DNA of 16,431 nt from the NCBI GenBank assembly GCA_903916665.1, contig CAIWXP010000170.1:1-16431 (forward strand), given 5' to 3'. The notes below the pieces were generated by a model, which saw nothing but the letters and a program-made list of their open reading frames with translations, was not told the DNA's origin and searched no databases. This document shows, in pieces, positions 1 to 16,431 of the stretch. Position 1 is the first letter of the stretch, and every line of letters begins with the position of its first letter. Source of the stretch: Candidatus Iainarchaeum sp. Its GTDB lineage: Archaea; Iainarchaeota; Iainarchaeia; Iainarchaeales; 0-14-0-20-30-16. A program made the translations under genes and the position numbers.

Positions 1-9
1 ATTAATTTT

Positions 10-957
10 TTATTTTCTAAATGGTCTCATTAATTCTTGTATTCTTTTTACTCTAGCAGGTCTTTTTCCAGAAATAAATCTTATTGGTGTTGAATGTGAA
101 TCAAAAACAGGACTTAAACGTTCTCTAACATGTATTCTGTGCAACATATAATCTGGAAAATCAATTTTATTAGCTCTAACAAAATCTTGTACTTCTCTTA
201 ATGGTATATCATGTCTATATCTTAACGCATCTAAAACTGCTGATCTGGTAGAGTAATCACTCGGTTTTAAATATTCTAAAAATTGTTTTTTATCGGTTAA
301 TTTCTTTCTAATTAAAATTGCTTGTAGAATATGTTTTTTTGCACCTGAATTTGCAACCTGTAAAAATCTTTCATAGTCTTGTTTTGTTAAATAATTACAT
401 TGACTAGTTAATAGTGCACGACCAGCAGAATCTGCAACTAGATTATTTGAATGGTTTAACAACAATTCAATTTCTTCTTTTGTTGTTTCTGCGTGTCTAA
501 CCAAAGCATAGGCCGCACCAGTCATAACATCTTGACTAGCTAAATTTAAATGATATTCCAAAAAATCTTTACTTAATCTATGCGATAATGCACTTCTAAT
601 AAATTGATTTGAATACCTTGCAATTTGCCATTCTATTTCTTTTAATTTTCCTTGATCTATTGCATCATTTTGTAATCTAATTAGTGCCGATTTAACAGTT
701 CTTGGAAAAACACAGGTACCTCTTTTTGCAAAAGCGTCGGCTAAATTTTTATATAATTTTATAGGATCTTTTATTCTTGCTAGACCCATTAATACGACGG
801 CTGCAGGAGAAACCAATTCATATTTGATTTCACCATGAAATTTATTTTCCGGATCCTTTGCAAACGCCTCTAAAACATTATTTATTGTATCTTCGGCAGT
901 TTCTCCCAAAGATATATTTTTTCTTTTTATATAGTCTGTTATTAAATGCAAAGTCAT
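10..957 (-). CDS. Hypothetical all-alpha tandem-repeat protein (HEAT/LRV-like repeats) with a basic C-terminal tail
   Basis: Complete 315-aa ORF, ATG at 957 and TAA at 10-12. Residues ~131-283 contain about five ~30-31 aa repeats with a recurring pattern: DFLEYHLNLASQDVMTGAAYALV, EIELLLNHSNNLVADSAGRALL, DYERFLQVANSGAKKHILQAIL, QFLEYLKPSDYSTRSAVLDAL, VQDFVRANKIDFPDYMLHRI. The tail is basic (GKRPARVKRIQELMRPFRK). No catalytic motif recognised. The gene call is solid; the function is unknown. Confidence 0.6.
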   Translation of the reverse strand: MTLHLITDYIKRKNISLGETAEDTINNVLEAFAKDPENKFHGEIKYELVSPAAVVLMGLARIKDPIKLYKNLADAFAKRGTCVFPRTVKSALIRLQNDAIDQGKLKEIEWQIARYSNQFIRSALSHRLSKDFLEYHLNLASQDVMTGAAYALVRHAETTKEEIELLLNHSNNLVADSAGRALLTSQCNYLTKQDYERFLQVANSGAKKHILQAILIRKKLTDKKQFLEYLKPSDYSTRSAVLDALRYRHDIPLREVQDFVRANKIDFPDYMLHRIHVRERLSPVFDSHSTPIRFISGKRPARVKRIQELMRPFRK

Positions 958-988
958 AATAATAAAACCAACATAGCCTTTTTATGCG

Positions 989-1077
989 TTTATAAATTGC
1001 TAGTCTTTATATACGAAGAAAAATAGGCAAAGGTTTATATACTACCTATTCTCCAAAATTATAAGAAAGTTTATAAA
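989..1077. promoter_or_regulatory. Divergent promoter region carrying four TATA-box-like octamers (TTTATAWA)
   Basis: TTTATAAA at 989-996 is self-complementary and lies ~35 nt from the minus-strand ATG at 957. TTTATATA occurs at 1006-1013 and 1034-1041. TTTATAAA at 1070-1077 is preceded by purine-rich AGAAAG (BRE-like) and lies ~57 nt upstream of the tfb ATG. The tfb SD GGTGAT is at 1125-1130. Confidence 0.5.
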
Positions 1078-1133
1078 ACTTACTGATTCTAATTAATGAT
1101 TTTTAAAAAAGAAATAAAAACAAAGGTGATAAT

Positions 1134-2051
1134 ATGGTTGAAAATATTTGTAAAGAATGTGGTGCAAAAACATTTGTAACTGATAAAGAAACTGGTGAAA
1201 TGGTTTGTAAGAATTGTGGAACTGTTATTGAAGGGGATGCAGTTGATTTATCAAAGGAATGGAGAACATTTGATTCTGATGAATTTAATGATAAGGCTAG
1301 AACCGGTGGTCCTATGCAACACTCAAAATTAAATAAAGGTGTTAGCACAATGATCGAAAGAGGCGGAAGAGATGCTAGAGGTAACAAGTTAAGTGCAGAA
1401 ACTAGAGAACAAATGTATAGATTAATTAGATGGCATAAAAGAACTGCTGTTTCAAACTCAGTTCAAAGAAATTTATCTATTGCATTAACTGAATTAAGAA
1501 GAATGGCACAGTATTTGAATATTCCTGAATCATTGGTTGAACAAGCAGCTGTATTGTATAGAAAAACAGTTGAGAAAGAATTAATTAGAGGAAGATTAAT
1601 TGAAGCTGTTGTTGCTGCAGTATTATATGCTGTTTGTAGAACTGCAAATATTCCTAGAACATTAAATGAAATGGCTGAAGCTTCTGGTTTAACTAAAAAA
1701 GATATTGGAAGAAATTATAGATATTTAGTTAGAGAATTGGAAATGTCTGTTCCTTTAACAAATCCTATATATTATATTTCAAGATTTGCATCTGAATTAA
1801 ATTTATCTGGTGAAGTTCAAGAAGAAGCTAGAAAGATATTAAATGATGCAATATTAAAAGGTTTAATTTCTGGAAGAGGCCCTACGGGTGTGGCGGCAGC
1901 TGCTGTATATATTGCTGCTTTGTTAAAGAATGAGAAAAGAACTCAAAAGCAAGTTGCAAATGTTGCAGGCGTAACAGAAGTTACTATTAGAAATAGATAT
2001 AGAGAATTAAAAGAAAAATTAAACCTAGAAGTGGAAGACGAACCGCAATAA
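1134..2051 (+). CDS. tfb: Transcription initiation factor IIB (TFB)
   Basis: N-terminal Zn ribbon CKECG-x15-CKNCG. Two cyclin-like repeats follow (RNLSIALTELRRMAQYLNIP...; ISRFASELNLSGEVQEEARKIL...GRGPTGVAAAAVYIAA) with a C-terminal HTH (QKQVANVAGVTEVTIRNRYRELKE). GGTGAT lies 3 nt upstream of the ATG. Confidence 0.95.
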   Translation: MVENICKECGAKTFVTDKETGEMVCKNCGTVIEGDAVDLSKEWRTFDSDEFNDKARTGGPMQHSKLNKGVSTMIERGGRDARGNKLSAETREQMYRLIRWHKRTAVSNSVQRNLSIALTELRRMAQYLNIPESLVEQAAVLYRKTVEKELIRGRLIEAVVAAVLYAVCRTANIPRTLNEMAEASGLTKKDIGRNYRYLVRELEMSVPLTNPIYYISRFASELNLSGEVQEEARKILNDAILKGLISGRGPTGVAAAAVYIAALLKNEKRTQKQVANVAGVTEVTIRNRYRELKEKLNLEVEDEPQ

Positions 2052-2058
2052 ATAAATT

Positions 2059-2090
2059 GAGGATTTTTCCTCTCTCTTTTTTTATTTTTT
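2059..2090 (+). terminator. Short hairpin plus long oligo-T tract downstream of tfb
   Basis: GAGGA (2059-2063) pairs with TCCTC (2068-2072) around a TTTT loop. TTTTTTTATTTTTT follows at 2077-2090. Archaeal termination depends mainly on oligo-T. Confidence 0.45.
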
Positions 2091-2145
2091 ATCCAAAAAA
2101 CGAAAGTATATTTATACTCTTCCGTACTAATATATTTGTGATTGG

Positions 2146-2454
2146 ATGACTGACCCAAGAGCAACAAAAAAGATTTATGATTTAGCTGGTTGGTTATTCT
2201 TGATAATTGGTCTAGTTTTGCTAATTATAATTAAAACACAAATTATACAAATTAATGCAAACTTATTATCTGGAATGCTTGTTTGGATTTTAATATCGCT
2301 GGTTTTTTTGATATCAATTATTTTTTCATTAATACAACTATTCAAACAATTTACATTGACCTCTATTTTCTGTTTTGCAATATCTGGAATTATATTTTTA
2401 GTTACTTGCACAATATTAATTGAAAATATAATGATTCTTGTAATAGTTCATTAG
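2146..2454 (+). CDS. Small integral membrane protein, unknown function
   Basis: 102-aa ORF with three to four long hydrophobic segments (WLFLIIGLVLLIII; MLVWILISLVFLISIIFSLI; IFCFAISGIIFLVTCTILI). A TATA-like AAAGTATATTTATAC lies ~30-40 nt upstream. No recognisable domain. Confidence 0.5.
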   Translation: MTDPRATKKIYDLAGWLFLIIGLVLLIIIKTQIIQINANLLSGMLVWILISLVFLISIIFSLIQLFKQFTLTSIFCFAISGIIFLVTCTILIENIMILVIVH

Positions 2455-2460
2455 AAACCA

Positions 2461-3627
2461 TTATTTAAATTCGATAATTTCCATTCTATCAATTGCATCT
2501 TTTGATAATGAATCAATATCTAATTCTTTTTCCAATTCTTTTACTTTATGCAAATCAGCCTTTGTTGTTGGGTGCTTAGGGGTAAAAAGAGTACAACAAT
2601 CTCCTTGTGGGATTATTGATGTTTCATAGCTTCCTATTTGTTTTGCAATTATAATTATTTCTTCTTTGTTATAACCAACCAAAGGACGCAAAACAGGTAT
2701 GGTAATTGCTTCTTGAATAGTACACATATTATCCAATGTTTGTGAACTTACTTGCGCCAACGCTTCTCCTGTAACCAGCGCTTTTATTTTTTCTTGCTTT
2801 GCTAACAATTCTGCAATTCTTAACATAAATCTTCTGTATAAAACAATTCTTTCTTCTGGTGGCGTTTTCATTTTAATTTCCATTTGTATTTTATAAAACG
2901 GAACAATATATAATTTAGATTTGGGTTGATATTTTAATAATAATTTACAAAGATCCTTTGATTTTATTATACTAGCATCATTGGTTGCTGGCACACTATG
3001 ATAATGAATATAATTTAATTCACAACCTCTTTTTAACATTAAAAAACTTGATACTGGTGAATCAATACCAGCACTCATTAATGATAATAATTGCCCTGAA
3101 CAACCCACTGGCAAACCATCAATTCCTTTTATAACCTCAAAATAAATATAGGTTCCTTTTTCTCGCATCTCAATGAATATTTCTTTATCCGGGTGAGAAA
3201 GATTTGCTTTTCTATCTACAACATTTCCAATATCTTTTGCTATTTCTTGACTTGACAATTTAACTGTATTATCATGTCTTGCCCTTACTGCAAAGGTTTC
3301 ATTTTCTTTTATCCAATCAATATAATTCTTTTCAACAAATTTAATAATTTCTTCTAAAGATTTTGTTTCTAAAAAATAGGCTGGTGATAGAGATGAAATT
3401 CCAGGAATATTTTGTATAATATTTGTTGCATCAATAACATTTTTTGTTTCTAGAAATAATTTATCATGGGTTGTAATTAATTTGTATTTTATCTTTTCAC
3501 GCGCTAGTGCACACTCTATATTATTAGACAATTTTCTTATAAATAAATCTCTTACACTTGAAGACTTAATAAAAAGCTCACCAAATGAAATTAATATGCC
3601 ATTCATAGTTTCACAATCAATATACAA
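2461..3627 (-). CDS. thiI: tRNA sulfurtransferase ThiI (tRNA 4-thiouridine synthase): THUMP plus PP-loop ATPase, no rhodanese domain
   Basis: 388 aa. The N-terminus has the ferredoxin-like/THUMP pattern (ILISFGELFIKSSSVR...). PP-loop motif is LMSAGIDSPVSS. The conserved C-terminal motif is GDCCTLFTPKHP. The ATG at 3606 (MNGILISFGE...) is a plausible alternative start. Confidence 0.9.
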   Translation of the reverse strand: MYIDCETMNGILISFGELFIKSSSVRDLFIRKLSNNIECALAREKIKYKLITTHDKLFLETKNVIDATNIIQNIPGISSLSPAYFLETKSLEEIIKFVEKNYIDWIKENETFAVRARHDNTVKLSSQEIAKDIGNVVDRKANLSHPDKEIFIEMREKGTYIYFEVIKGIDGLPVGCSGQLLSLMSAGIDSPVSSFLMLKRGCELNYIHYHSVPATNDASIIKSKDLCKLLLKYQPKSKLYIVPFYKIQMEIKMKTPPEERIVLYRRFMLRIAELLAKQEKIKALVTGEALAQVSSQTLDNMCTIQEAITIPVLRPLVGYNKEEIIIIAKQIGSYETSIIPQGDCCTLFTPKHPTTKADLHKVKELEKELDIDSLSKDAIDRMEIIEFK

Positions 3628-3630
3628 ATA

Positions 3631-3650
3631 ATTAATAAATATTTATTAAT
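3631..3650. promoter_or_regulatory. Perfect 20-bp AT palindrome in the thiI / wHTH-regulator divergent intergenic region
   Basis: ATTAATAAATATTTATTAAT is identical to its reverse complement. It sits 4 nt from the thiI ORF start and ~37 nt upstream of the ATG at 3687. It is a candidate symmetric TATA/BRE element or an operator. Confidence 0.4.
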
Positions 3651-3686
3651 CGGAAAGATTTTAAACACTTGTTATATTATGTATTT

Positions 3687-4157
3687 ATGCATAATAAACA
3701 TGTTGGAATATTATTCATTGTTGTGGCAGGAATTTTAGGATTAATTATTTTTCTTTTTAATAATGCATTAAATAAAATTGTTACCGATACTTGTACCGAA
3801 GGGCCTACCTGTCCTATGTATAGCACAATTGCATTTAGCACCTATTTGAGTATTGGTATGATAATAATTGTCATTTTAGCAGGTTTTGCGTTTATTTTCT
3901 TTTTCAAAGACAATCAAAAACAAACAAAAAAAATAGATGAATCTGCATATCAAACAATAATGAAAACATTAAAAGAAGACGAAAAATTAACATTAAAAAC
4001 AATCATTGCTAACGGCGGCACAATTTTTCAATCAGATTTGGTTGAAAAAACTAATTATCCAAAGGTTAAAATAACAAGAATCTTAGATCATTTGGAATCA
4101 AAAGATATTATAGAAAGAAAAAGACGTGGAATGACCAATGTTGTTATTCTAAAGTAA
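3687..4157 (+). CDS. Membrane-anchored winged-helix (MarR/TrmB-like) transcriptional regulator, COG2512-like architecture
   Basis: Two TM helices (ILFIVVAGILGLIIFLF and YLSIGMIIIVILAGFAFIFFF) flank a loop TDTCTEGPTCPMY. The C-terminal ~65 aa is a wHTH (LTLKTIIANGGTIFQSDLVEKTNYPKVKITRILDHLESKDIIERKRRGMTNVVILK). The ORF track starts at TTG 3669; the first ATG is at 3687. Confidence 0.7.
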   Translation: MHNKHVGILFIVVAGILGLIIFLFNNALNKIVTDTCTEGPTCPMYSTIAFSTYLSIGMIIIVILAGFAFIFFFKDNQKQTKKIDESAYQTIMKTLKEDEKLTLKTIIANGGTIFQSDLVEKTNYPKVKITRILDHLESKDIIERKRRGMTNVVILK

Positions 4158-4210
4158 TTGTATGCTTGAGCAAAGCGAAACATGCTTGTTTTCTTTGGAC
4201 AGACGGTGTA

Positions 4211-4229
4211 CTTTCTTTGGGAAAGAAAG
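4211..4229 (+). other. Perfect 8-bp stem / 3-nt loop hairpin inside an unusually GC-richer intergenic segment
   Basis: CTTTCTTT-GGG-AAAGAAAG. No oligo-T tract follows it. It is embedded in 4158-4299, which also carries three pairs of short direct repeats (see findings). Confidence 0.4.
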
Positions 4230-4311
4230 GCCTCGTGAAACTAGTTACAAACAAGACTATAATCTCTGTTACAAATATATCTAATTATTAAATATTGGTT
4301 TGAGGGGTTTT

Positions 4312-4911
4312 ATGACTAAGAAAAACTGCTGCAAAAATAATAACAAAGATGCTGCAAAAAAAGGAATATTGTTTGGGCTATTAGCGCACTTGCCTTGTAT
4401 TGCACTAATTATAATTACAATAATTGGAATAAGTCTAGGGGGTACTTTACTTACAACTTTTATGAGTTCGTATTTGTTTTATGGCTTAATTGGATTATCT
4501 TTTGTTTTAGTTACTATATCTGCGATAATTTATTTGAAGAGACAAAATTCTTTGAATATTGAGGGTATAAAAGATAATTGGAAATATTTAGCAATATTAT
4601 ATGGAATTGCAATTATAATAAATATTCTATTCCTAACAGTTATATTTCCATACTCTACTAATCTAGTTAGCGCATCACAAAATAAAATTACATTTGCTGA
4701 AAATTTACAAATAATTAATTTGCAAGTTAATATTCCTTGTGCAGGACACGCAATATTAATTAGTAGTGAATTAAAAAAAGATTTAGGAATAAAAAATGTT
4801 GAATATAATTTTCCTAGTTCGTTTAAAATATCCTTCAATCCCAAAGAAACAACAAAACAAAACATCCTAAATAATCCCATATTCAAAGAATACTCTGCAA
4901 AAGAGATATAA
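4312..4911 (+). CDS. Three-TM membrane protein: cytoplasmic CC motif, in-membrane HLPC motif and a C-terminal HMA-like (ferredoxin-fold) domain with C-x-x-H. A MerT/MerP-like metal relay protein
   Basis: The SD GAGGGG at 4302-4307 precedes the ATG at 4312; the ORF track begins at TTG 4300. The N-terminus is MTKKNCCKNNNKDAAKK. TM1 is GILFGLLAHLPCIALIIITIIG. The C-terminal segment QIINLQVNIPCAGHAILISSELKKDLGIKNVEYNFPSSFKISFNPKETTKQNI aligns by eye to the HMA beta-alpha-beta-beta-alpha pattern, with PCAGH in place of MxCxxC. It ends 22 nt upstream of copA. Confidence 0.6.
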   Translation: MTKKNCCKNNNKDAAKKGILFGLLAHLPCIALIIITIIGISLGGTLLTTFMSSYLFYGLIGLSFVLVTISAIIYLKRQNSLNIEGIKDNWKYLAILYGIAIIINILFLTVIFPYSTNLVSASQNKITFAENLQIINLQVNIPCAGHAILISSELKKDLGIKNVEYNFPSSFKISFNPKETTKQNILNNPIFKEYSAKEI

Positions 4912-4933
4912 ATAATAAAAGAGTTGATGATTT

Positions 4934-7096
4934 ATGAATAAAAATTTTGGTATCAAAGGAATGCATTGTAGCAATTGCGCACAAACTATTGAAAAGGGAT
5001 TAAAGAGTGAAGCTGGGATAAAAAATGCAAATATTAACTTTGCATTATCTAATTTAAATTTAGATTTTGACGAATCAAAAACCAATATAACCAAAATTAA
5101 AAATAAAATTAAATCTTTAGGTTACCAAGCAGAAGAAGAAAATGATTTTCAAAAATTAGAAGAAGAACAGAAAAACTATTATAAAAAACGTTTAATAGTT
5201 AGTGTGATTTTTGCAATACCTGCTTTTATAATCGGCATGTTATTAATGTGGTTAGGTATTGATATTCCATTTAGAAATTTTATTTTATTTATATTGGCCA
5301 CACCAATTCAATTTTATATTGGTTATGATTTTTACAAAAGCGCATTTAATGCGCTAAAAAATAAAACTGCAAACATGGATTCATTAATTGCTCTAGGAAC
5401 TAGCGCAGCCTATTTTTTTAGTGTCTATAGTATATTTTTTGCTCCACAATTAGGACAATATTTTGAAACTTCTGCGATATTAATTACTTTGGTAATATTG
5501 GGAAAATATTTAGAAGCAAAGGCAAAAGGAAAAGCTTCTGAAGCCATAAAAAAATTATTAGATTTAAGCCCAAAAATGGCAATTGTAATTAAAAATGGCA
5601 AAGAATTATCATTATCTATTGACAATATTAAATTAGGAGATATTGTATTGGTAAAACCAGGAGAAAAAATACCTATTGATGGAATTATTATCTCTGGAAA
5701 TACATCAGTAGATGAATCCATGATAACTGGAGAAAGTATGCCCATTGAAAAAATAATAAATGATTTTGTTATTGGTGGAACAATAAATAAATTTGGGACA
5801 ATAAAATTTAGAGCAACAAAAATTGGAGAAAACACAACATTAAGTAATATAATAAAAATAGTTCAAGAGGCACAAACTAAAAAAGCACCAATTCAAAGAT
5901 TTGCAGACAAGGTTTCAAAATATTTTGTGCCTGTTGTAATTTGTCTTGCAATAATAACTTTTATAATTTGGTGTTTTGTATTTGGTAATTTCTCATTTGG
6001 TTTAATTAATGCAATTTCAGTATTAGTTATTGCATGTCCTTGTGCATTGGGGTTAGCGACACCTACTGCGATAATGGTATCAACAGGAAAGGCAGCAAAT
6101 AATGGTTTTTTAATAAGAACTCCTGAAACTTTAGAAATTATTCACAAAGCAAAATACATTGTTTTTGATAAGACTGGAACAATAACAAATGGTAAACCAA
6201 TTATTACAAATATTATCGAAATAAATGCTACCAAAAAAGAAGTTTTAGAAATTTCTGCTAGTCTGGAAAATCATTCTGAACATAGTTTGGCCGAACCAAT
6301 AATTAATGAAGCAAAAAAACAAAATTTAAAATTAAAAATAATAACTAATTTTGAAGCATTGCCTGGTTATGGCATTACTGCAAAAATAAATACTGAAAAA
6401 TATTTTTTAGGAAATATTAAATTTATTTTAAAAAATAAAATAGAAATAAAAAATAGAAAACAAATTGAAGAATTGGAATCACGGGGAAATACTGTTATGA
6501 TTTTAACAGATAAAAAAAATATTTTGGGGCTAATATGTGTTGCAGATACAATTAGGGACAATGCAAGAAAAACAATTGATACGTTACATAAATTAAATCT
6601 TGAAATCTATTTAATTACTGGTGATAATATACGGGTCGCAAATGCACTCGCAATACAAGCAGGAATTAAAAATGTTTTTGCAGATGTTTTGCCACAGGAT
6701 AAATTAATGCATGTAAAAGAGTTGCAAAAAAAAGGAAAAGTAATTATGGTTGGTGATGGTATAAATGATTCTCCTGCTTTGACACAGGCCGATATTGGAA
6801 TAGCAATGGGTACTGCAAGTGATATTGCAATTGAAAGTGGAAATATTGTTTTATTAAAGAATGATTTGGAAAATATTCCCAGAGCGATAAAATTAAGTAA
6901 ATTAACAATTTCAAAAATCAAACAAAATATGTTCTGGGCTTTGGCCTATAATGTTATTGGAATACCTATTGCTGCGGGCGCTTTATACTTTACAACTGGT
7001 TGGCTATTATCTCCAATTATTGCCAGTATAACTATGGCACTAAGTTCGATAAGCGTAGTTGGAAATTCAATATTGCTAAAATATAGGAAATTATAG
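4934..7096 (+). CDS. copA: Copper-translocating P1B-type ATPase (CopA)
   Basis: 720 aa with one N-terminal HMA domain (GMHCSNCAQTIEKGL). Other motifs: TGE (MITGESMP), the CPC transmembrane metal site (ACPCALGLATP), the DKTGT phosphorylation site, HP-region sequences, and the GDGINDSPAL hinge. Confidence 0.95.
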   Translation: MNKNFGIKGMHCSNCAQTIEKGLKSEAGIKNANINFALSNLNLDFDESKTNITKIKNKIKSLGYQAEEENDFQKLEEEQKNYYKKRLIVSVIFAIPAFIIGMLLMWLGIDIPFRNFILFILATPIQFYIGYDFYKSAFNALKNKTANMDSLIALGTSAAYFFSVYSIFFAPQLGQYFETSAILITLVILGKYLEAKAKGKASEAIKKLLDLSPKMAIVIKNGKELSLSIDNIKLGDIVLVKPGEKIPIDGIIISGNTSVDESMITGESMPIEKIINDFVIGGTINKFGTIKFRATKIGENTTLSNIIKIVQEAQTKKAPIQRFADKVSKYFVPVVICLAIITFIIWCFVFGNFSFGLINAISVLVIACPCALGLATPTAIMVSTGKAANNGFLIRTPETLEIIHKAKYIVFDKTGTITNGKPIITNIIEINATKKEVLEISASLENHSEHSLAEPIINEAKKQNLKLKIITNFEALPGYGITAKINTEKYFLGNIKFILKNKIEIKNRKQIEELESRGNTVMILTDKKNILGLICVADTIRDNARKTIDTLHKLNLEIYLITGDNIRVANALAIQAGIKNVFADVLPQDKLMHVKELQKKGKVIMVGDGINDSPALTQADIGIAMGTASDIAIESGNIVLLKNDLENIPRAIKLSKLTISKIKQNMFWALAYNVIGIPIAAGALYFTTGWLLSPIIASITMALSSISVVGNSILLKYRKL

Positions 7097-7105
7097 CAAT
7101 ATATT

Positions 7106-7113
7106 TTTATATA
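7106..7113 (+). promoter_or_regulatory. TATA-box-like element upstream of the DsbC-like gene
   Basis: TTTATATA lies ~47 nt upstream of the ATG at 7160. The SD GGTGGT at 7151-7156 is 3 nt from the ATG. This suggests an independent promoter downstream of copA. Confidence 0.4.
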
Positions 7114-7159
7114 GATAGAACATTTTTCTTTATACTTATTTTATATTTAAGGTGGTAAT

Positions 7160-8332
7160 ATGGCAAAGAAAGAAGTTAAAGTAAAAAAAGAACATACTGG
7201 CAAATGTTGTGAAAACGTTTGGATGTATGTTAGTATTGCTTTAGGTATCGCTTTTATAATTGCATTGGTATTTGCAATTGTAGGTGCTGCTAAAGCTAGT
7301 TCTGGAACTACAGGAATTGGAGCAAATAATGCTGCACAGGTAGTTTTAGATTTAATGAAAAAAACTCAAGGCATTGATGCAAATGTAATTGGTGCTGTTG
7401 AAGTAAATGGATTATATAAAATCACATTAAATGCAAAAGATCAGAATGCGGATATTTATGTTACATTAGATGGACAAAATATAATGCCTGGTAATGCAGT
7501 ATTTAATGTAAAAGATATTGAAAATACTGCTGTGACTGATAAAAATGCACCCGTTGATCAAAACACAACTCCTGCAACTACACCAACAGTATATACTTTA
7601 CCAAAAATGATTGGTCAAATGCCTGTTGAAGGAAACACAGCATCAAAAATAACTGTTGTTGAATTCTCAGATTTCCAATGCCCTTTTTGTGGTATGGCTT
7701 TTGGTGCTCCTTGGACTGCAGAATATAAAACATCACAATATGCATCAATAATTGGTGGAACACAAAAGATAGAAGAATTAGCATTAGCTGGTAAAATCGC
7801 TTTTGTACATTTCCCTGTTGCATTTTTAGATGAACAAAGCCCAACAAAGGAATCACACAAAGCATCAAACGCAGCACTATGTGCTAGAGATCAAAACAAA
7901 TATTTCGAAATGCACAATGTGTTATTTAACGCACAAACAAAAACAGAAAACGATGGAAAATATGAAACAGATAAATTAAAATTATTGGGTGCTAAAGTTG
8001 AAGGTTTAGACTTGAATGTATTTAATTCTTGTTTAGATTCTCAAAAATATTTCTCAACAATAGACGCAATAACTCAAGATGCAAGTGATACTTCAAAAGC
8101 AAATGTTGGTGGATTTGGAACTCCTGCATTTTACATTGTTGTTGACGCATCAATAGGAAAAGCAAAATTAGAAAGTGTTTTAACACCAATCAGAGCAGAA
8201 GTTGTAAAAGCACAACCTAAAGATACAACTAGTTATACTTTTGCACCTACAGCAGATGGTTTAAAATATGTAATTATTGCAGATCCAGAATATGCAGTAA
8301 TGCAAGTAGTAATTAATGGTTTAACTGCTTAA
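7160..8332 (+). CDS. Membrane-anchored thiol:disulfide oxidoreductase/isomerase: DsbA-family thioredoxin fold with CPFC active site and a DsbC-N-like domain
   Basis: 390 aa. The N-terminal cytoplasmic segment is MAKKEVKVKKEHTGKCCENVW, followed by a TM helix (MYVSIALGIAFIIALVFAIVGAA). A segment resembling the DsbC N-terminal dimerisation domain follows (VEVNGLYKITLNAKDQNADIYVTLDGQNIMPG). After a Thr/Pro linker comes the thioredoxin-like domain with ITVVEFSDFQCPFCG and the cis-Pro region GTPAFYIV. Confidence 0.8.
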   Translation: MAKKEVKVKKEHTGKCCENVWMYVSIALGIAFIIALVFAIVGAAKASSGTTGIGANNAAQVVLDLMKKTQGIDANVIGAVEVNGLYKITLNAKDQNADIYVTLDGQNIMPGNAVFNVKDIENTAVTDKNAPVDQNTTPATTPTVYTLPKMIGQMPVEGNTASKITVVEFSDFQCPFCGMAFGAPWTAEYKTSQYASIIGGTQKIEELALAGKIAFVHFPVAFLDEQSPTKESHKASNAALCARDQNKYFEMHNVLFNAQTKTENDGKYETDKLKLLGAKVEGLDLNVFNSCLDSQKYFSTIDAITQDASDTSKANVGGFGTPAFYIVVDASIGKAKLESVLTPIRAEVVKAQPKDTTSYTFAPTADGLKYVIIADPEYAVMQVVINGLTA

Positions 8333-8350
8333 TATTACGCAGAAATCAAT

Positions 8351-8391
8351 ATGTTGCAAAAAAGCTTTGCAACATTTATTTTTCTTTTTTT
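8351..8391 (+). terminator. Intrinsic-terminator-like hairpin plus T-tract after the DsbC-like gene
   Basis: Perfect 10-bp stem: ATGTTGCAAA (8351-8360) pairs with TTTGCAACAT (8366-8375) around the loop AAAGC. T-rich TTATTTTTCTTTTTTT follows at 8376-8391. Confidence 0.6.
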
Positions 8392-8406
8392 ATTTAATTG
8401 ATTTTT

Positions 8407-9045
8407 ATGAATACTAAGTTTGATAAAATATTTTTTATTTTAGATAAAGAAATTCCAAAATATAATGTTCCTGTTATTGATTTGATTAAAGTACAAACCA
8501 ATGATCCTTTTAAAATTTTAATAGCAACTATTTTGAGCGCAAGAACAAAAGATTCGACTACTCACAATGCAGCAGAAAAATTGTTTTCAAAAATCAAAAC
8601 ATTTGATGATTTCAATAAATTTTCACAACTACAAATTGAGAAATTAATTTATCCTGTTGGTTTCTATAAAACCAAGGCTAAACACTTGAAACTTTTGCCA
8701 GAAGCAATAAAACAATTTAATAACAAAATACCTCAAACTATTGATGAACTAATTAAACTTCCTGGTGTTGGAAGAAAAACAGCTAATTTGGTTATGAGCG
8801 TTGCTTTTAATGAAGATGCAATTTGTGTTGATACACACGTTCACAGAATTAGCAATAGAATTGGTTTTATTAAAACAATTACTCCTTTCGAAAGCGAAAT
8901 GCAATTACGAAAGATATTACCAATAAAATACTGGAAAAAGATAAATTTTTATTTTGTTGCCCAAGGACAAAACATCTGCTTGCCACGAGGCCCAAAATGT
9001 AATATCTGCCCAATAAACAAATATTGTGAAAAACATATTTTATAA
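8407..9045 (+). CDS. nth: Endonuclease III (DNA glycosylase/AP lyase, HhH-GPD family with a [4Fe-4S] cluster loop)
   Basis: HhH-GPD motif LPGVGRKTANLVMSVAF with the catalytic Lys, and Asp in VDTHVHRI. The C-terminal C-x6-C-x2-C-x5-C is CLPRGPKCNICPINKYC. The ORF track begins at TTG 8398; the first ATG is at 8407 (MNTKF...). Confidence 0.9.
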   Translation: MNTKFDKIFFILDKEIPKYNVPVIDLIKVQTNDPFKILIATILSARTKDSTTHNAAEKLFSKIKTFDDFNKFSQLQIEKLIYPVGFYKTKAKHLKLLPEAIKQFNNKIPQTIDELIKLPGVGRKTANLVMSVAFNEDAICVDTHVHRISNRIGFIKTITPFESEMQLRKILPIKYWKKINFYFVAQGQNICLPRGPKCNICPINKYCEKHIL

Positions 9046-9085
9046 CTATTTAATCTTTTATATTTAACAATACATATATAAATAA

Positions 9086-9107
9086 CATATGAACTATATT
9101 TCATATG
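9086..9107. promoter_or_regulatory. Inverted repeat overlapping the start codon of the ArsR-family gene (candidate autoregulatory operator)
   Basis: CATATGAA (9086-9093) and TTCATATG (9100-9107) are exact reverse complements separated by CTATAT. TATA-like TTTTATATTTA at 9056-9066 and ATATATAAA at 9074-9082 lie just upstream. No SD is visible, so the mRNA may have a short leader or none. Confidence 0.45.
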
Positions 9108-9413
9108 ACTAATTGTTCATGTGATTCATTCTTTGTAAACTTTAGTAATAAGGCTAGACTTAATATTATGCTTTTATTAAAAACTAGGGCCTGTGATGTT
9201 ACTACTATTAGTAGAAATTTAAAAATAGAACAAAGTTTAGTTTCGCACAATATGACCAAATTATTATCCTGTAATTTAGTGCAATCAAAAAGAGAAGGCA
9301 AAACTAAGATATATAGTTTAAATAAAAAAGTAGCTTTACCAATTTTAGATATTTATGAAAAAAACATTTTAAAAAATTGTTGTAGTATTTGTAAAAATGA
9401 AAAAAAGAAATAA
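9105..9413 (+). CDS. ArsR/SmtB-family winged-helix regulator, cysteine-rich (7 Cys)
   Basis: 102 aa. The HTH core ACDVTTISRNLKIEQSLVSHNMTKLLSCNLVQSKREGKTKIYSLN matches the ArsR pattern (xCDLxxxLxxSQSxVSHHLxxLxxAGLVxxRREGRxxxYxL). There is an N-terminal CSC pair and a C-terminal CCSIC cluster. The gene ends 11 nt before the iscS ATG. Confidence 0.85.
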   Translation: MTNCSCDSFFVNFSNKARLNIMLLLKTRACDVTTISRNLKIEQSLVSHNMTKLLSCNLVQSKREGKTKIYSLNKKVALPILDIYEKNILKNCCSICKNEKKK

Positions 9414-9424
9414 AGGTGATTTTT

Positions 9425-10606
9425 ATGACTAAGATTGTATATTTAGATAATGGTGCAACAACGCAGATTGATCCTGAAGTGTTAAAAGCTATGCTACCTT
9501 ATTTCACAGAGGCCTATGGCAATGCAGCATCATTACACGCAAAGGGAGTGGAAGCTAAGGATGCTTTGGAAAAAGCAAGAAAAGTTATTGCAAAAAGTAT
9601 AAATGCAGAACAAGAAGAAATAATATTTACTTCTGGTGGAACAGAATCAAATAATTTTGCTTTGAAAGCAATTGCCTTTGCAAACAAAGATAAAGGTAAT
9701 CATATTATTACAACTAAAGTGGAACATAAATGTATTTTAGAAACCTGTAAATGGTTAGAGGCGCAAGGATTTGAAATTACTTATTTAAATGTTGATAAAG
9801 ATGGTTTTATTAAATTAGATGAATTAGAAAATTCAATAACAAAAAAAACTATTTTAGTTTCTGTTATCCACGGCAATAACGAAATTGGAACAATAATGGA
9901 TTTACAAAGTATTGGAAATATTTGTAAAAAAAATGATGTTTATTTTCACACAGATGCTTGCCAAAGTTATACTAAAACAGAAATAGATGTTAAAAAACAA
10001 AACTTAGATTTAGTAACAATTAACGCACATAAAATACACGGACCCAAAGGTGTTGGTGCATTATTTGTTAAAAAAGGAACAAAAATAAAACAATGGCAAC
10101 ATGGTGGAGCGCACGAATTTAATTTAAGAGCAGGAACAGAAAATGTTTCTGGTATTGTTGGATTTGCAAAAGCTGTTGCCATATCAGATAAAAAACACAT
10201 TGAATATGTAACAAAATTAAGAGACAAATTAATTTCAGGAATGTTAGAAATACCAGATGTAATATTAAACGGACCCACTGGTAATAAAAGACTTTGTAAT
10301 AATGCAAACTTTTCATTCAAAGGTATTGAAGGGGAAGCAATTGGTGGTTATTTGGATTCTTTTGGTGTTTGTTCATCAACGGGTTCTGCATGTTCATCAA
10401 TTAAACTAGAACCAAGCTATGTTTTGAAAGCGATAGGAAAAACTAATGAACAGGCCAATGGTTCGTTAAGATTAACTTTAAGTAAATACACAACAGAAGA
10501 AGAAATTGATTTTGTTTTAAAAAAAATGCCAGAGATAGTAAAAAAATTAAGAAGTTTTTCTCCAATTTATAAGGTGGTTAACTATGTACTCAAAAAAAGT
10601 AATTAA
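9425..10606 (+). CDS. iscS: Cysteine desulfurase, class V aminotransferase (IscS/NifS type)
   Basis: N-terminus is IVYLDNGATT. The PLP-lysine motif is NAHKIHGPKGVGAL. The active-site Cys loop is SSTGSACSS, and the C-terminal motif is SLRLTLSKYTTEEEID. The SD GGTGAT at 9415-9420 is 4 nt from the ATG at 9425; the ORF track starts at GTG 9416. Confidence 0.92.
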   Translation: MTKIVYLDNGATTQIDPEVLKAMLPYFTEAYGNAASLHAKGVEAKDALEKARKVIAKSINAEQEEIIFTSGGTESNNFALKAIAFANKDKGNHIITTKVEHKCILETCKWLEAQGFEITYLNVDKDGFIKLDELENSITKKTILVSVIHGNNEIGTIMDLQSIGNICKKNDVYFHTDACQSYTKTEIDVKKQNLDLVTINAHKIHGPKGVGALFVKKGTKIKQWQHGGAHEFNLRAGTENVSGIVGFAKAVAISDKKHIEYVTKLRDKLISGMLEIPDVILNGPTGNKRLCNNANFSFKGIEGEAIGGYLDSFGVCSSTGSACSSIKLEPSYVLKAIGKTNEQANGSLRLTLSKYTTEEEIDFVLKKMPEIVKKLRSFSPIYKVVNYVLKKSN

Positions 10607-11291
10607 TATTTTTAAAAATCCAAAACATGTTGGAAAATTAAATGACGCAAATGGTATTGGTGAAGTTGGCAATATCAAATGTGGAGATATGATGAAAGTA
10701 TATTTAAAAGTAAAAAATAACATCATTGAAGATGTTAAAGTTGAAACCTATGGTTGTGTTGCAGCTATCGCTGCTAGTGATACAATGTGTAAATTAGTAA
10801 AAGGAAAAACATTGGAAGAAGCAGAAGCATTAACCTATAAAAAAATAGTTGAAGACCTGGGAGAAATGCCCAAGATAAAATATCATTGTTCTATCATGGG
10901 TACAGAAGCATTACACAAAGCAATTAAAGATTATAGAGATCATCACAAAAATGAAATTAATAAAGGAGTTGGTAAAATGAAATATGATGAAAAAACTACA
11001 TTGGCAAAAGCATTGGATGCTATTGATGGACCAGAAATATTAGCTAAATATCATGTTCCTTGTTTAGGTTGTCATTTTGCATCTCAAGAATTAAATTCAT
11101 TAACATTAAAGGATATTCATGATGCCTACGGTGTTGATTTGAAAAGTATTTTAAAAGACCTTAACAATTCTTCTTTGGAAAAGAAGAAACAAGAAATAAA
11201 AACACCCGCAAAGAAACTAATTGCAAAAAAAGTAATTAAAAAAACAGTTTCAAAAACAAAAACTACAAAATCAAAAAAGAGTAAGAAATAA
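10584..11291 (+). CDS. iscU: Fe-S cluster scaffold IscU/NifU-N fused to a DUF1858-like CxxC (redox disulfide) domain and a lysine-rich tail
   Basis: The IscU core carries the three cluster Cys (NIKCGDMM, YGCVAAIAASD, KYHCSIMG). Residues ~134-196, TLAKALDAIDGPEILAKYHVPCLGCHFASQELNSLTLKDIHDAYGVDLKSILKDLN, resemble the DUF1858 / hybrid-cluster-protein-associated redox disulfide domain. The tail is KKKQEIKTPAKKLIAKKVIKKTVSKTKTTKSKKSKK. The SD GGTGG precedes the ATG, and the gene overlaps the iscS 3' end by 23 nt. Confidence 0.88.
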   Translation: MYSKKVINIFKNPKHVGKLNDANGIGEVGNIKCGDMMKVYLKVKNNIIEDVKVETYGCVAAIAASDTMCKLVKGKTLEEAEALTYKKIVEDLGEMPKIKYHCSIMGTEALHKAIKDYRDHHKNEINKGVGKMKYDEKTTLAKALDAIDGPEILAKYHVPCLGCHFASQELNSLTLKDIHDAYGVDLKSILKDLNNSSLEKKKQEIKTPAKKLIAKKVIKKTVSKTKTTKSKKSKK

Positions 11292-11300
11292 TTTTCTTAC

Positions 11301-12047
11301 CTATAATATTTTTTTAATTTCATCAAAATTAATTATACTATATTCTGGTTTTAAAGCTTTTATTTCTTTATCGTATTTTCCTAGTAATATATCATTTGCA
11401 GAAATGCCTTTTTGTAATAATAAAGATATGGGATTTTGTCCTGCATATTTACCACAATAAAGTAAAATAGTATTCATTTCTGCGTTGTGTGCGCCTTTAA
11501 TATCAACATCTAATCTATTTCCAACATAATAGGATATTTTAGGGTTTGCATTTAATTTTTCTAATGCTCTTTTATACAATATTGGATTTGGTTTTATCTC
11601 CAAAATATCTTTAGACGCAAAAAAACAATCTTTAAAATAATGATCTAAACCAATTACTTGTAATTTATCAATTTGCTTTTCTGGGGGCCCAGTTGTTACT
11701 ATTCCTAATTTATATCCTTTTTTTATTAAATAATCTAATGTTGATTTTACATGAACATTTGTTTGAAGTGATGCCAATTTAATTAATCTATATCTTTTTA
11801 TTCCTGCATTAATTATAGTCTTATTTGTTATTCCATAATCATAGCACAAAAGATTAAAATCTAGTTCACTAACTTTTTTATTTTTTCTTATTTCGTGTAA
11901 TTTTTGTAATGCTTTATTAGGGTCTGTTTCTGGCAAACTGGCATTTATCATAGAAATTATTGATTGATATAAAACAGTTTCAATAAAATCAGATGTTGGT
12001 ATTAGAGTATCATCAATATCAAATAATACTGCTTTATTATTAGTCAT
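11301..12047 (-). CDS. HAD-superfamily hydrolase (subfamily IA-like phosphatase)
   Basis: Motif I is LFDIDDTL (DxDxT). Motif II is GIVTTG. The motif III Lys lies in EIKPNP. Motif IV is YVGNRLDVDIKGA. Substrate cannot be assigned from sequence. Confidence 0.85.
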   Translation of the reverse strand: MTNNKAVLFDIDDTLIPTSDFIETVLYQSIISMINASLPETDPNKALQKLHEIRKNKKVSELDFNLLCYDYGITNKTIINAGIKRYRLIKLASLQTNVHVKSTLDYLIKKGYKLGIVTTGPPEKQIDKLQVIGLDHYFKDCFFASKDILEIKPNPILYKRALEKLNANPKISYYVGNRLDVDIKGAHNAEMNTILLYCGKYAGQNPISLLLQKGISANDILLGKYDKEIKALKPEYSIINFDEIKKIL

Positions 12048-12053
12048 ATATAA

Positions 12054-12884
12054 TCACTTTTTCTTTACTTTAACAAATTCCATTGTTCCTGGTGGTAAAC
12101 ATTGAATAATTTCATCCAGAGTAATTTCTTTTTGTTGTTCTTTATCTAATTTTTTATATATTTGTTTTCCTATTTCTCCTTTTTTATCTTTTCCGGGAAC
12201 TACTTCTGCAATCATTTTTATTCCTTTGTGCATCAATAATTTTTCAGAACCAATAAAAACTCTTAATTTAGAATTAGTTTTATCTAATTTAGAAATATCG
12301 CAAATACCAATAGCTAATTTCATTTGTATTTTCTTAAAGAAATTCTTTTCTCCTCTAATTACAAATGCCCCTTGAGATAATGATTCTCCAGATTCTGCTG
12401 TTTTTGAAACCTGATCGGGATAAACAAAATACACATCAACACTTGCAAAACCCAGATTCCATGCTTTTGAAAAAACACTAGCAAATAATGCACAATCTTC
12501 TAGATCGTCTTTCTCTGCCTTTTGACCTTGCTTTAAAATAATATGCGCAGATCCTTGAATTGTACTGTGAAATAATAAATCATCTTTTTCCAAATGATTT
12601 TTAACAATGTATTCATTGCTTTGAGAATCTTTTCCTCCAATTATTAAAAAATCATTTGTTGTAAATCCCCAATGATATTTTTCATACCATAGAGTTTTCT
12701 TTTTTTCCTGGGTTTCTTTCTTTTCTATTTTTTTACTAGATAGGTTTTCTAATCTTTTTTCCATATCTTTAACTGCCACGTCTAAACCTATTAATTTTCT
12801 TTTCATTTTTTTATATTCATTAAAATAATCCTGGGCACTTTTATTTACAGGATCCTTAATACTTATTGCTACTTCTTGAGACAT
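12054..12884 (-). CDS. NFACT/RqcH-family protein containing only the C-terminal coiled-coil helix, NFACT-R (DUF814) and NFACT-C-like regions
   Basis: 276 aa. KSAQDYFNEYKKMKRK matches the conserved ENAQxYFKKYxKxK segment of FbpA/RqcH. The DUF814 core is FLIIGGKDSQSNEYIVKNHLEKDDLLFHSTIQGSAHIILKQG...VDVYFVYPDQVSK...GAFVIRGE. No NFACT-N or HhH region is present. The gene ends 6 nt upstream of the HAD gene, so the two are probably an operon. Confidence 0.8.
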   Translation of the reverse strand: MSQEVAISIKDPVNKSAQDYFNEYKKMKRKLIGLDVAVKDMEKRLENLSSKKIEKKETQEKKKTLWYEKYHWGFTTNDFLIIGGKDSQSNEYIVKNHLEKDDLLFHSTIQGSAHIILKQGQKAEKDDLEDCALFASVFSKAWNLGFASVDVYFVYPDQVSKTAESGESLSQGAFVIRGEKNFFKKIQMKLAIGICDISKLDKTNSKLRVFIGSEKLLMHKGIKMIAEVVPGKDKKGEIGKQIYKKLDKEQQKEITLDEIIQCLPPGTMEFVKVKKK

Positions 12885-12964
12885 AATAAAACCTTTATTT
12901 TGTTTTTTATGTTCCTGCTATAAGTTTTGCAAAAAACTTATTAACAAGGCCATAACAAAACCTT

Positions 12965-12972
12965 TTTATATA
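12965..12972 (+). promoter_or_regulatory. TATA-box-like element upstream of the KaiC-like gene
   Basis: TTTATATA lies within CCTTTTTATATATATATAAC, ~55 nt upstream of the ATG at 13027. The SD GGTGAT at 13018-13023 is 3 nt from the ATG. Confidence 0.4.
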
Positions 12973-13026
12973 TATATAACATATATGTCTTGACTATGTA
13001 TTTATAGTTTGTGCTTAGGTGATGTT

Positions 13027-13773: not shown

Positions 13774-13793
13774 TTCTATTTGGAGGAGTTTAA

Positions 13794-16091: not shown

Positions 16092-16127
16092 CCTTTTTAC
16101 CTTTTTCTTTTTACTTCCTTTTTTTAT
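16074..16127 (+). terminator. Hairpin overlapping the ppsA stop codon, followed by an extended T-rich region (convergent terminator zone)
   Basis: AAAAAGGCTA (16074-16083) pairs with TAGCCTTTTT (16089-16098) around the loop AATTC. ACCTTTTTCTTTTTACTTCCTTTTTTT follows. On the other strand, the same region could terminate the minus-strand ORF ending at 16131. Confidence 0.5.
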
Positions 16128-16130
16128 ATT

Positions 16131-16431
16131 TTATAATATTCCTCTAAGTTTAATGCTAGATATTGAAATATTATTTTTCGATGCTATTTTTACTATCTTT
16201 TTATGAATTAAATTAATATATTCTAAATTCACTTTTGTCATATATTTTATCCATATTTTTGTTATTTTATCAATATTAAAATTATCTGTATTTTTGTATT
16301 TGTTGTATAATTTTAAATTTTTTTGTTTTAAAACTTTTAATAATTCAAAAAACCATCTTGAATTTGGTAAAATAGTTGCCAATCTTCCTGCCACTCTATA
16401 TGCTCCACCAATTTTAGCAATTTTATCAAAA
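16131..16431 (-). CDS. Unknown-function ORF, probably truncated by the window edge
   Basis: The ORF track gives 87 aa from GTG 16394. The same frame stays open with no stop to the window end (upstream residues FDKIAKIGGAYR). The product is Lys/Asn/Ile-rich with no recognisable motif. Whether the gene starts at GTG 16394 or beyond the window cannot be decided here. Confidence 0.35.
   Translation of the reverse strand, partial: FDKIAKIGGAYRVAGRLATILPNSRWFFELLKVLKQKNLKLYNKYKNTDNFNIDKITKIWIKYMTKVNLEYINLIHKKIVKIASKNNISISSIKLRGIL

Follow-up and report, generated by a model that had tools for sequence, protein, structure and literature searches.

Transmembrane transcription regulators (TTRs) are defined as polypeptides that combine at least one predicted transmembrane (TM) region with a predicted DNA-binding domain (Demey et al., 2023, PMC10269533). 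That survey cites archaeal TTRs for motility and pilin control only, and the words copper and metal are absent from it. In the portions of the literature covered by our searches, metal-sensing transcription factors are soluble and read the cytoplasmic pool, sensing of the outside being carried out by two-component systems or anti-sigma factors, and the sections consulted of a 2024 review on bacterial metal sensing name no membrane-tethered metallosensor. Here we describe a 16,431-nucleotide stretch of DNA from Candidatus Iainarchaeum sp. (assembly GCA_903916665.1, contig CAIWXP010000170.1, positions 1 to 16,431; hereafter the window) that encodes, upstream of the gene for a copper ATPase (CopA), a small protein with two predicted TM helices, a loop containing Cys and Met between them and a DUF7343 winged helix. 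From sequence analysis we propose, with a probability of about 0.6, that this protein is a membrane-tethered, copper-responsive one-component regulator of the adjacent cop promoter. Literature searches on DUF7343, on the operator sequence described below, on DPANN copper regulators and on membrane-anchored one-component copper sensors returned nothing relevant.

The window's regulator resembles ToxR, TcpP and CadC in being a one-component, membrane-resident protein with its DNA-binding domain inside and its sensing part outside, and extracytoplasmic Cys pairs are important for the activity of all three of these proteins. However, in those proteins an OmpR-type winged helix stands at the N-terminus, there is one TM helix and the periplasmic domain is folded, and none of them is a metal sensor, whereas the window's protein begins with two TM helices, has a 27-residue loop as its sole outside part and ends in a DUF7343/MarR-like winged helix. 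No Trans_reg_C match was found in the regulator by Pfam; with this, the reversed domain order and the two TM helices, it is not a member of the ToxR/CadC-like family. ArnR and ArnR1, which act on the archaellum of Sulfolobus acidocaldarius, are likewise membrane-anchored transcription regulators of an archaeon. ArnR carries an N-terminal helix-turn-helix, a HAMP-like region and C-terminal TM helices and serves the starvation response; compared by description only, it differs from the window's regulator in domain order and in having neither a Cys loop nor a link to metal.

Among regulators of copper genes, CopR/CopT of Saccharolobus, Pyrococcus and Halobacterium shares with the window's protein that it is an archaeal winged-helix regulator encoded beside copA/copZ and acting on the cop promoter. 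It is, however, TrmB-like and soluble and reads cytoplasmic copper through a C-terminal Cys-rich TRASH domain, whereas the site proposed here would lie outside; no TRASH domain (PF08394/YHS-like) was found in the regulator, and neither TRASH-type nor CsoR-family (PF02583) regulators were found anywhere in the window's genome, which is 83% complete. CopY of Enterococcus hirae and Streptococcus (operons copY-copZ-copA and copY-cupA-copA) is similar as a small winged-helix protein encoded by the first gene of its operon and binding a short palindrome with close half-sites. CopY is a repressor released by Cu(I), and its cop box, TACAnnTGTA, is unrelated in sequence to the window's putative operator. 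It differs further in being cytoplasmic, in belonging to the BlaI/MecI family and in its C-terminal CxCx4CxC; Penicillinase_R/BlaI-MecI was not among the regulator's Pfam matches up to an E-value of 0.1, and the regulator's C-terminus (...NVVILK) is without cysteines. The likeness to CsoR is confined to the likely ligand set, two Cys and one His (trigonal and between subunits in CsoR), CsoR being an all-helical cytoplasmic tetramer that has no winged helix.

Copper-gene linkage and a putative operator

To describe the surroundings of the regulator gene across the family, open reading frames (ORFs) were called and clustered in 80 loci from species-representative genomes, and directional counts were limited to loci whose sequence extends for at least 4 kb on the side counted. 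In 46 of 57 such loci the regulator is followed on its own strand, at a distance of up to 4 kb, by a copper gene, meaning a gene for CopZ, an HMA membrane protein or CopA (CopA itself in 42 of the 57), and within 4 kb upstream, on any strand, one was found in 1 of 52, this one being CopA. Over the whole set, CopA is downstream of the regulator in 59 of the 80 GTDB loci. The co-occurrence with copA that the original prediction, a model's reading of the window from its letters alone, had proposed to examine is therefore found, and orthologues lie mostly beside copper genes rather than unrelated ones. Loci that have no copper gene downstream bear DUF411 (CopG-like), cupredoxin or Met-rich proteins. 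Two gene orders occur, one in which the regulator is followed by a CopZ-like HMA protein, an HMA/DsbD_2-type membrane protein of about 500 amino acids and CopA, and another, that of the window, in which it is followed by a MerTP-like membrane protein and CopA; Pfam backs the HMA, DsbD_2, cupredoxin, FtrD-like and thioredoxin assignments of the neighbour proteins. Of the 10 strongest orthologues (E ≤ 1e-50, the window's own included) in a sample of 215 genomes from the same phylum, 8 sit 1-6 kb from the genome's CopA and one belongs to a same-genus genome that gave no CopA match; in this sample, by a hand tally, about 40 of about 73 full-length family matches are within 10 kb of a P1B ATPase match, for which the chance expectation is about 2% given one ATPase per genome of about 1 Mb. 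The linkage of regulator and copper genes survives changes of gene order and orientation. One genome of the same genus (G001, 80% complete) encodes a close orthologue (C38:24515-24916, E 2.5e-54, residues 1-141), and no CopA match was found anywhere in that assembly, which may reflect an assembly gap or a real loss.

A short sequence, GAAACTAGTT[TA]C, was first noticed in the flanks of several regulators and in the window's downstream spacer. Searched as G[AT]AAC-NN-GTT[AT]C, it has 79 copies in 980 kb of related loci, nearly all of them between the regulator stop codon and the first copper gene; the expectation for an exact 12-mer in the sequence searched is about 0.06. Of 81 loci, 70 have an operator of the form TGAAACTAGTTTCAtAcaat...TtATAAggtGTTTCA downstream of the regulator, and for 45 of these 70 the distance from the stop codon is no more than 100 nt. 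The conserved site has the form TGAAACTAGTTTCA-N-TATA-N-GTTTCA, and the aligned consensus, TGAAACTAGTTTCAtAcaat...TtATAAggtGTTTCAtt, consists of a palindrome, ATACAA at the position of the transcription factor B (TFB) recognition element (BRE), a TATA box and a third half-site, GTTTCA. The window's copy, at 4237-4272, keeps this geometry exactly: the putative operator palindrome GAAACTAGTTAC (family consensus GAAACTAGTTTC), identified by a pattern and position conserved in relatives, occupies 4237-4248 and reads on either strand, the predicted cop promoter TATA box, TATAAT, at 4258-4263 on the plus strand, aligns with TtATAAgg at offset 22-29 of the family consensus, and the third half-site, GTTAC (consensus GTTTCA), at 4268-4272 on the plus strand, keeps the family's offset of +31 from the start of the palindrome. 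The intergenic DNA at 4158-4311, which had been suggested beforehand for binding assays, thus appears to hold an operator and promoter conserved across the family.

In relatives the downstream ORF very often begins at +51/52 from the palindrome start, with the TATA centre about 26 nt before the leaderless start; on this scale the palindrome spans about -51 to -40, with the third half-site at about -20 to -16. Because the first gene of relatives begins at this offset, transcription in the window would be expected to start near 4288, and the short leader that follows contains GAGGGG before ATG 4312. The operator begins 2-30 nt after the regulator stop codon in most relatives, and in the window the two are separated by a spacer of 80 nt (4158-4236), with 43% G+C against a window average of 28% and with a hairpin, CTTTCTTTGGGAAAGAAAG, at 4211-4229. 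Judged by the shorter distance in relatives, this spacer is a presumed lineage-specific insertion. Structured RNA or tRNA was also considered for 4158-4299 and set aside, as no Rfam or ARAGORN match was obtained.

A natural control is provided by a second group of regulators, here referred to as subfamily B, as distinct from subfamily A, to which the window's regulator belongs. Twenty divergent CopA-adjacent loci were taken from the weaker full-length matches in the phylum sample, of which 17 gave a regulator match; 15 of these 17 regulators start with M-[ED]-[LVI]-K. Their architecture is the same, with a loop of the form C-x4-C-Q-H-E and the recognition helix KLKSHRILQRL in place of KVKVTRILDKLE, and the gene is usually divergent from the copper genes, its divergent neighbour being a MerTP-like/HMA membrane protein or CopZ. 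The pattern GAAAC[CT]-N14-18-GAAAC[CT] is present once each in 16 of the 17 loci; 15 of the sites read GAAACCAT-[ACATAT/TAATAT/TAATAG]-N-GAAACC, and 13 are within 150 nt of the regulator gene. The subfamily B site is therefore a 22-bp direct repeat, with the GAAAC core on either side of a TATA-like element. GTTTCA/TGAAAC half-sites around the cop TATA box are thus common to both subfamilies, their bracketing of the box being a property of the whole family, and the spacing and symmetry of the site change together with the regulator type. This pattern is the best support obtained here that the family itself binds the sites, and binding of the 4237-4272 operator by the window's regulator is in our judgement quite probable.

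The window copy is the only intergenic match to the pattern in its own 975-kb genome. A second genomic match (C13:8789) lies inside a helicase-like ORF and was rejected as an operator, being probably due to chance; the reversed pattern, used as a control, matched 9 times per strand. In four further genomes (G027, G040, G043 and G044) GAAACYRGTTTC has its only genomic match 5-112 nt past the strong orthologue, and in a fifth (G018) at 685 nt. Given the single intergenic match in the window's genome and the position of the only match near the regulator in the other five, the regulon looks like a single promoter. Degenerate GAAACYRGTTTC was discarded as a test of the regulon across the 215 genomes, where it was too noisy, with CA, TG and CG centres; the informative sites in that scan are the exact TA-centred ones adjoining strong orthologues only. 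Co-variation of half-sites 2 and 3 (GTTAC with GTTAC) was seen in 3 of 6 cases only and gave no signal.

The regulator gene, its product and the loop motif

The ORF at 3669-4157, open from TTG 3669, was verified on the plus strand, where the original prediction had placed it, but its first six codons are probably untranslated. TTG 3669 is an unlikely translation start and ATG 3687 is probably used instead, since close homologues start with M-[KR]-N-[KR] where the window has ATG 3687. A TATA-like box, TTTTAAAC, predicted to be the regulator's own promoter, is located at 3659-3666 on the plus strand, about 27 nt 5' of ATG 3687, and predicts a transcript start near 3687; boxes of the TTTAAA(T)A type are found about 22-30 nt 5' of the regulator ATG in 75 related loci. 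From the aligned homologue starts and this box, the product is likely a protein of 156 amino acids, translated from ATG 3687 on a leaderless mRNA, and the gene is accordingly delimited as 3687-4157 (plus strand) and described from the ORF, Pfam and homologues as encoding a membrane-tethered DUF7343 winged-helix protein. Residue numbers are counted from ATG 3687, whereas the Pfam coordinates 102-161 given below refer to the ORF of 162 amino acids.

No GAAAC operator was found upstream of the window's regulator gene, nor upstream of most of its relatives among 75 related upstream regions, and expression of the regulator is therefore probably constitutive. In a few relatives the operator is also present 5' of the regulator gene (L013 1547-2094, L016 7950-8495): in L013, which contains a tandem pair of regulator genes, it precedes the second of them, and in L016 the regulator is flanked by sites upstream and downstream. 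A site overlaps the regulator start in L041 and L052. With sites upstream of or over the regulator start in these four loci, some lineages seem to be autoregulated. A perfect 20-mer palindrome at 3631-3650, which the original prediction had proposed for a binding test with the winged helix, did not hold up as this regulator's operator: it has no counterpart in the 75 related upstream regions, none of which has a GAAAC site at that place either, and palindromes as long are found in 7% of composition-matched block-shuffled windows. It may be part of the promoters of thiI and the regulator, which are divergent.

In the regulator, Kyte-Doolittle 19-mer hydropathy peaks at residues 6-24 (3.12) and 54-72 (2.84), which correspond to predicted TM helices 1 and 2 (3702-3758 and 3846-3902); with the DUF7343 winged helix, the protein thus contains both sequence elements of a TTR. 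The hairpin tip between them, residues 25-53 (3759-3845), is predicted to be extracytoplasmic from its fixed length, its net negative charge and an invariant N25, and the inter-helix loop proper (residues 25-51) has 27 residues in 37 of 37 aligned homologues. TM helix 2 is followed by a Lys-rich flexible linker, residues 73-84 (3903-3938), whose length varies among homologues, and by a predicted cytoplasmic winged helix-turn-helix (wHTH), residues 85-156 (3939-4154), all of these being on the plus strand; within it, KVKITRILDHLE...ERKRRGMTNVVILK corresponds to the putative recognition helix and wing. The mean number of Lys and Arg is 1.8 in the six-residue N-terminus and 5.7 in the first 20 residues past TM helix 2, and in the loop it is 1.3 against a mean of 1.9 Asp and Glu. 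As the DNA-binding winged helix must be cytoplasmic and the charge distribution agrees, a topology with both termini inside and the loop outside fits. In this respect the earlier description agrees, having given two helices bracketing a loop of about 25 residues, a Lys-rich segment after the second helix leading into a wHTH, a cytoplasmic wHTH and an outward Cys/Met loop.

Pfam assigns DUF7343 (PF24034) to residues 102-161 with an E-value of 3.2e-12 and 46.5 bits (cut-off 27.6) over 60 of 62 profile positions, as confirmed by the genome search. MarR models remained below their cut-offs (PF01047, 21.6 bits against 24.6; PF12802, 23.0 bits against 27), and precomputed PF01047 hits exist on many homologues, so that the family is MarR-like in fold. 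An AlphaFold2 model built on a 37-sequence alignment has a mean predicted local distance difference test score (pLDDT) of 81 and places helices 3-35 and 43-72, which include the two TM helices, in a helical hairpin, with C36-T-E-G-P-T-C42 at the turn, a disordered linker at 73-84 (pLDDT <50 at 76-80) and a winged helix at 85-155 (pLDDT 85-90). Both hairpin helices run about 10 residues past the hydrophobic stretches, and the Cys pair would therefore project clear of the membrane on the outside. The flanking dimerisation helices of MarR-type proteins are absent from the model, in which only the winged-helix core follows the disordered linker, and the architecture is different from that of MarR. 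Foldseek against the PDB returned only generic MarR/ArsR/TFIIE-type winged helices (E ≥ 3.5e-3), and the hairpin-plus-wHTH architecture was not matched.

The turn of the hairpin carries the candidate metal/thiol site, C36-T-E38-G-P-T-C42-P-M44 (3792-3818, plus strand), which was recognized by its conservation. The family consensus is C-[ST]-H-G-P-[ST]-C-P-M; in 37 homologues of 48-84% identity C36, G39, C42 and M44 are invariant, as is N25, and at least 90% of them have H38. Across the 158 family proteins that contain C-x5-C, His occupies position 38 in 136 and Met follows C-P in 143, and the substitutes at position 38 include Glu, Met and Cys, all able to bind metal. Glu is found in the window's regulator (CTEGPTCPM vs CSHGPTCPM), while an 84% identical relative (P0002) retains His. 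Representatives of distant clusters have the same architecture and the Cys pair, with varying spacing and with M, H, F, L or A after C-P. Loop cysteines that vary among orthologues would have counted against the original prediction; they are instead among the most constant residues, and distant relatives keep the pair. Its motif C-x5-C-P-M is conserved as well, but it forms part of a fuller family motif, C-x-H-G-x-x-C-P-M, in which the window has Glu for a near-invariant His. One 80% identical relative of 140 amino acids (P0003), encoded on a 958-nt contig, is missing its N-terminus and retains neither of the loop cysteines nor the methionine (TSSHGTTWPTYS); decay of the gene or a fault in the assembly could account for this.

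The family is large: a search of a large protein collection returned 911 homologues at E ≤ 1e-3, most of which span 96% of the length at about 50% identity, and a search without a word index gave 331 clusters (50% identity) at E ≤ 1e-10. Few homologues have names, and those that do are annotated as MarR-family regulator, hypothetical protein or uncharacterised membrane protein. Relatives are encoded in 573 GTDB species genomes, and nearly all of the best 80 of these are DPANN-type by their record labels (Woese-, Pace-, Nano-, Micr-, Aenigm-, Iain-, Undin- and Nanohaloarchaeota), several of the 80 being labelled otherwise, e.g. Methanosarcinales. Two further DUF7343 proteins, both membrane-tethered, are encoded in the window's own genome. 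One (G000:C45:4015-4536; L085 1195-1716) has two TM helices and no loop cysteines and is located beside an ABC-transporter ATPase, and the other (G000:C93:4407-5180; L084 877-1650) combines a signal peptide with an ectodomain of about 150 amino acids and one TM helix. DUF7343 winged helices thus seem to be anchored in the membrane as a rule in this organism, the Cys loop marking the copper-linked branch, and several membrane-anchored regulators appear to be in use.

Proposed mechanism and rival explanations

In the mechanism we propose, a two-helix hairpin would anchor the regulator, leaving the short N-terminus and the C-terminal winged helix inside, and its tip would reach about 10 residues beyond the membrane and display Cys36, Glu38 (His in most relatives), Cys42 and Met44. 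The winged helices, probably forming a dimer joined by the membrane helices, would bind the GAAAC/GTTTCA half-sites that bracket the TATA box of the 4237-4272 promoter, which is predicted to drive the MerTP-like gene, copA and probably the DsbA-like gene. In the copper-free state the bound protein would most likely obstruct TATA-binding protein (TBP) and TFB, or RNA polymerase. Binding of Cu(I) at the tip, or copper-driven oxidation of the tip, would alter the packing of the membrane helices, and this would loosen the hold of the two winged helices on half-sites whose centres are only 7 bp apart and turn the operon on. That the outward tip senses copper directly, binding Cu(I) via Cys36, Cys42, Met44 and His/Glu38, is somewhat favoured, and the site may possibly lie between two protomers, as in Cys2-His sites. 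We lean, by a comparably small degree, towards repression by the unliganded protein, since the bound protein would cover the TATA box.

The copper-regulator interpretation is thus supported as far as analysis of this kind reaches, the conserved loop cysteines and the copper-gene neighbours both being in its favour, but several observations weigh against it. Metal binding is deduced from the types of ligand alone, and the occurrence of C-P-F/L/A in distant relatives suggests that the third and fourth ligands are not universal. The outward C-x5-C at the hairpin turn could be a plain structural disulfide or, because thiols are oxidised under copper catalysis and the operon includes Dsb-like genes, it may form a disulfide that acts as a redox switch. 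The disordered, length-variable linker between TM helix 2 and the winged helix makes rigid conformational signalling hard to picture, and control through dimerisation or avidity is therefore favoured over rigid transmission. The main palindrome of subfamily A is upstream of BRE/TATA, which is the usual place of an archaeal activator. Moreover, the neighbourhood counts were made on related genomes, which are not independent events, and the number is overstated to that extent, and the window itself deviates from the family in Glu for His, in GTTAC for GTTTC in two half-sites and in the extra 80-nt spacer.

Four rival explanations were weighed, of which two concern the action on DNA. The same regulator and operator could work by activation in the manner of ToxR, CadC and TcpP, copper or a copper-driven disulfide pairing the hairpins so that the dimer recruits TFB/TBP. 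The location of the subfamily A palindrome directly upstream of BRE (about -51 to -40) is typical of archaeal activators, the flexible linker suits induced dimerisation better than rigid-body signalling, and the cop TATA box (cTTATAAgg), unlike the TTTAAATA-type box of the regulator promoter, could be weaker and need help; in addition, the characterised membrane-tethered regulators ToxR, TcpP and CadC are activators and provide a precedent. This mode of action nevertheless seems to us unlikely, though it deserves serious attention, because the third half-site between TATA and start (about -20 to -16) and the half-sites of subfamily B that closely flank TATA are both placed as is typical of repression by occlusion. 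It is also conceivable that the adjacency of regulator and copper genes is conserved gene order only, with some other, soluble factor binding the site and the membrane protein tethering DNA or binding a protein. ArsR-family genes, present in 11 of the 80 loci, would offer such a factor, but they are absent from most loci, and the window's genome has no CsoR/TRASH-type regulator; in 70 of 81 loci, which span several DPANN phyla (by record labels), the regulator and the copper genes have the site between them, and its type tracks the regulator subfamily even when gene orientation flips. We regard this explanation as very improbable.

The remaining two explanations concern the signal. The loop might be a thiol-disulfide switch responding to oxidative or copper-catalysed disulfide stress in the envelope and controlling genes for both copper export and disulfide handling. 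Across all subfamilies only the two Cys of the loop are conserved, F, L or A following C-P in distant relatives, and DsbA-like, thioredoxin-like, glutaredoxin and DsbD_2-type proteins recur in the operons; a precedent is found in CadC and ToxR/TcpP, whose periplasmic Cys pairs serve as redox switches (see also PMC3096576). Yet linkage to Cu(I) ATPases and HMA chaperones is strict, and in the main subfamily His and Met nearly always accompany the Cys pair, with most of the rare substitutes at position 38 being metal-capable, which would be odd for a pure disulfide and leaves a thiol switch rather doubtful. Alternatively, the protein could regulate the cop promoter and not be the sensor, the Cys pair being a structural staple and the signal coming from a partner (the outward HMA-like or cupredoxin domains of co-encoded membrane proteins or, on the inside, CopZ) or from regulated proteolysis that frees the winged helix. 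The loop is merely 27 residues long, metal-binding domains are present on co-encoded membrane proteins, the disordered Lys-rich linker would be an accessible protease site, and co-component arrangements such as ToxRS and TcpPH are described for membrane-tethered regulators (PMC13042144 and PMC11323476). However, the partners vary by locus (MerTP-like, HMA-DsbD_2 fusion or CopZ only) while the loop motif stays constant, and no protease gene recurs in the neighbourhoods of the 80 loci, so that we consider a non-sensing regulator improbable.

The cop operon of the window and wider significance

For the tethered copper-responsive regulator proposed here, the first regulated gene is predicted to be the plus-strand neighbour of the operator at 4312-4911 (ORF open from TTG 4300), which encodes a membrane protein with an N-terminal CC, HLPC in its first TM helix and a C-terminal HMA-like domain in which C-A-G-H replaces CxxC. 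Its sole family match is NCBIfam MerTP_fusion (E 2.4e-7), below the cut-off. Homologues are found between regulator and CopA in 24-26 of the 80 loci and are often 260-330 amino acids long in relatives; one of them (L009, 313 amino acids) has a canonical N-terminal HMA domain. The next gene, at 4934-7096 on the plus strand, encodes CopA, a Cu(I)-type P1B-1 ATPase (TIGR01511, 624 bits against a cut-off of 397) with the motifs GMHCSNC (GMxCxxC), CPC, YN, MALSS (MxxSS) and DKTGT. It is followed at 7160-8332, also on the plus strand, by a gene for a membrane-anchored DsbA/thioredoxin-like protein (Pfam Thioredoxin_4, 2e-11, and DSBA, 3e-6), a probable member of the operon from its orientation alone; DsbA-like, thioredoxin-like, glutaredoxin and DsbD_2-type proteins are recurrent in the cop operons of relatives. 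Some copper-operon proteins of related loci (L019 9256-9939 and related genes of cluster 20, and L042 12648-13277) end in ...G-G-[SA]-M-V-G-G-C or ...GCGCGG, a Gly/Cys tail that could bind Cu(I) or serve in sorting.

What is probably new in this system is a minimal and probably copper-binding sensor together with a defined putative operator, membrane-tethered one-component regulation itself being known. If copper is indeed sensed outside and DNA acted upon inside by the same small protein, a transmembrane metal switch could hardly be simpler; a DUF7343 winged-helix protein would receive its first proposed function, and membrane-tethered regulation in archaea would for the first time extend beyond the control of motility. 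The short sensor hairpin and the defined 36-bp promoter could be a compact biosensor part. DPANN archaea have almost no characterised regulators, and here a regulator, a probable operator and a single target promoter are brought together. We suggest, more tentatively, that the protein family may be the main copper sensor of DPANN archaea, in which extracellular Cu(I) would be read directly by a Cys2-His/Met knuckle at the tip of a hairpin and a single promoter would be controlled from the membrane via GAAAC half-sites around its TATA box, with no need of a kinase, a sigma factor or a soluble partner.

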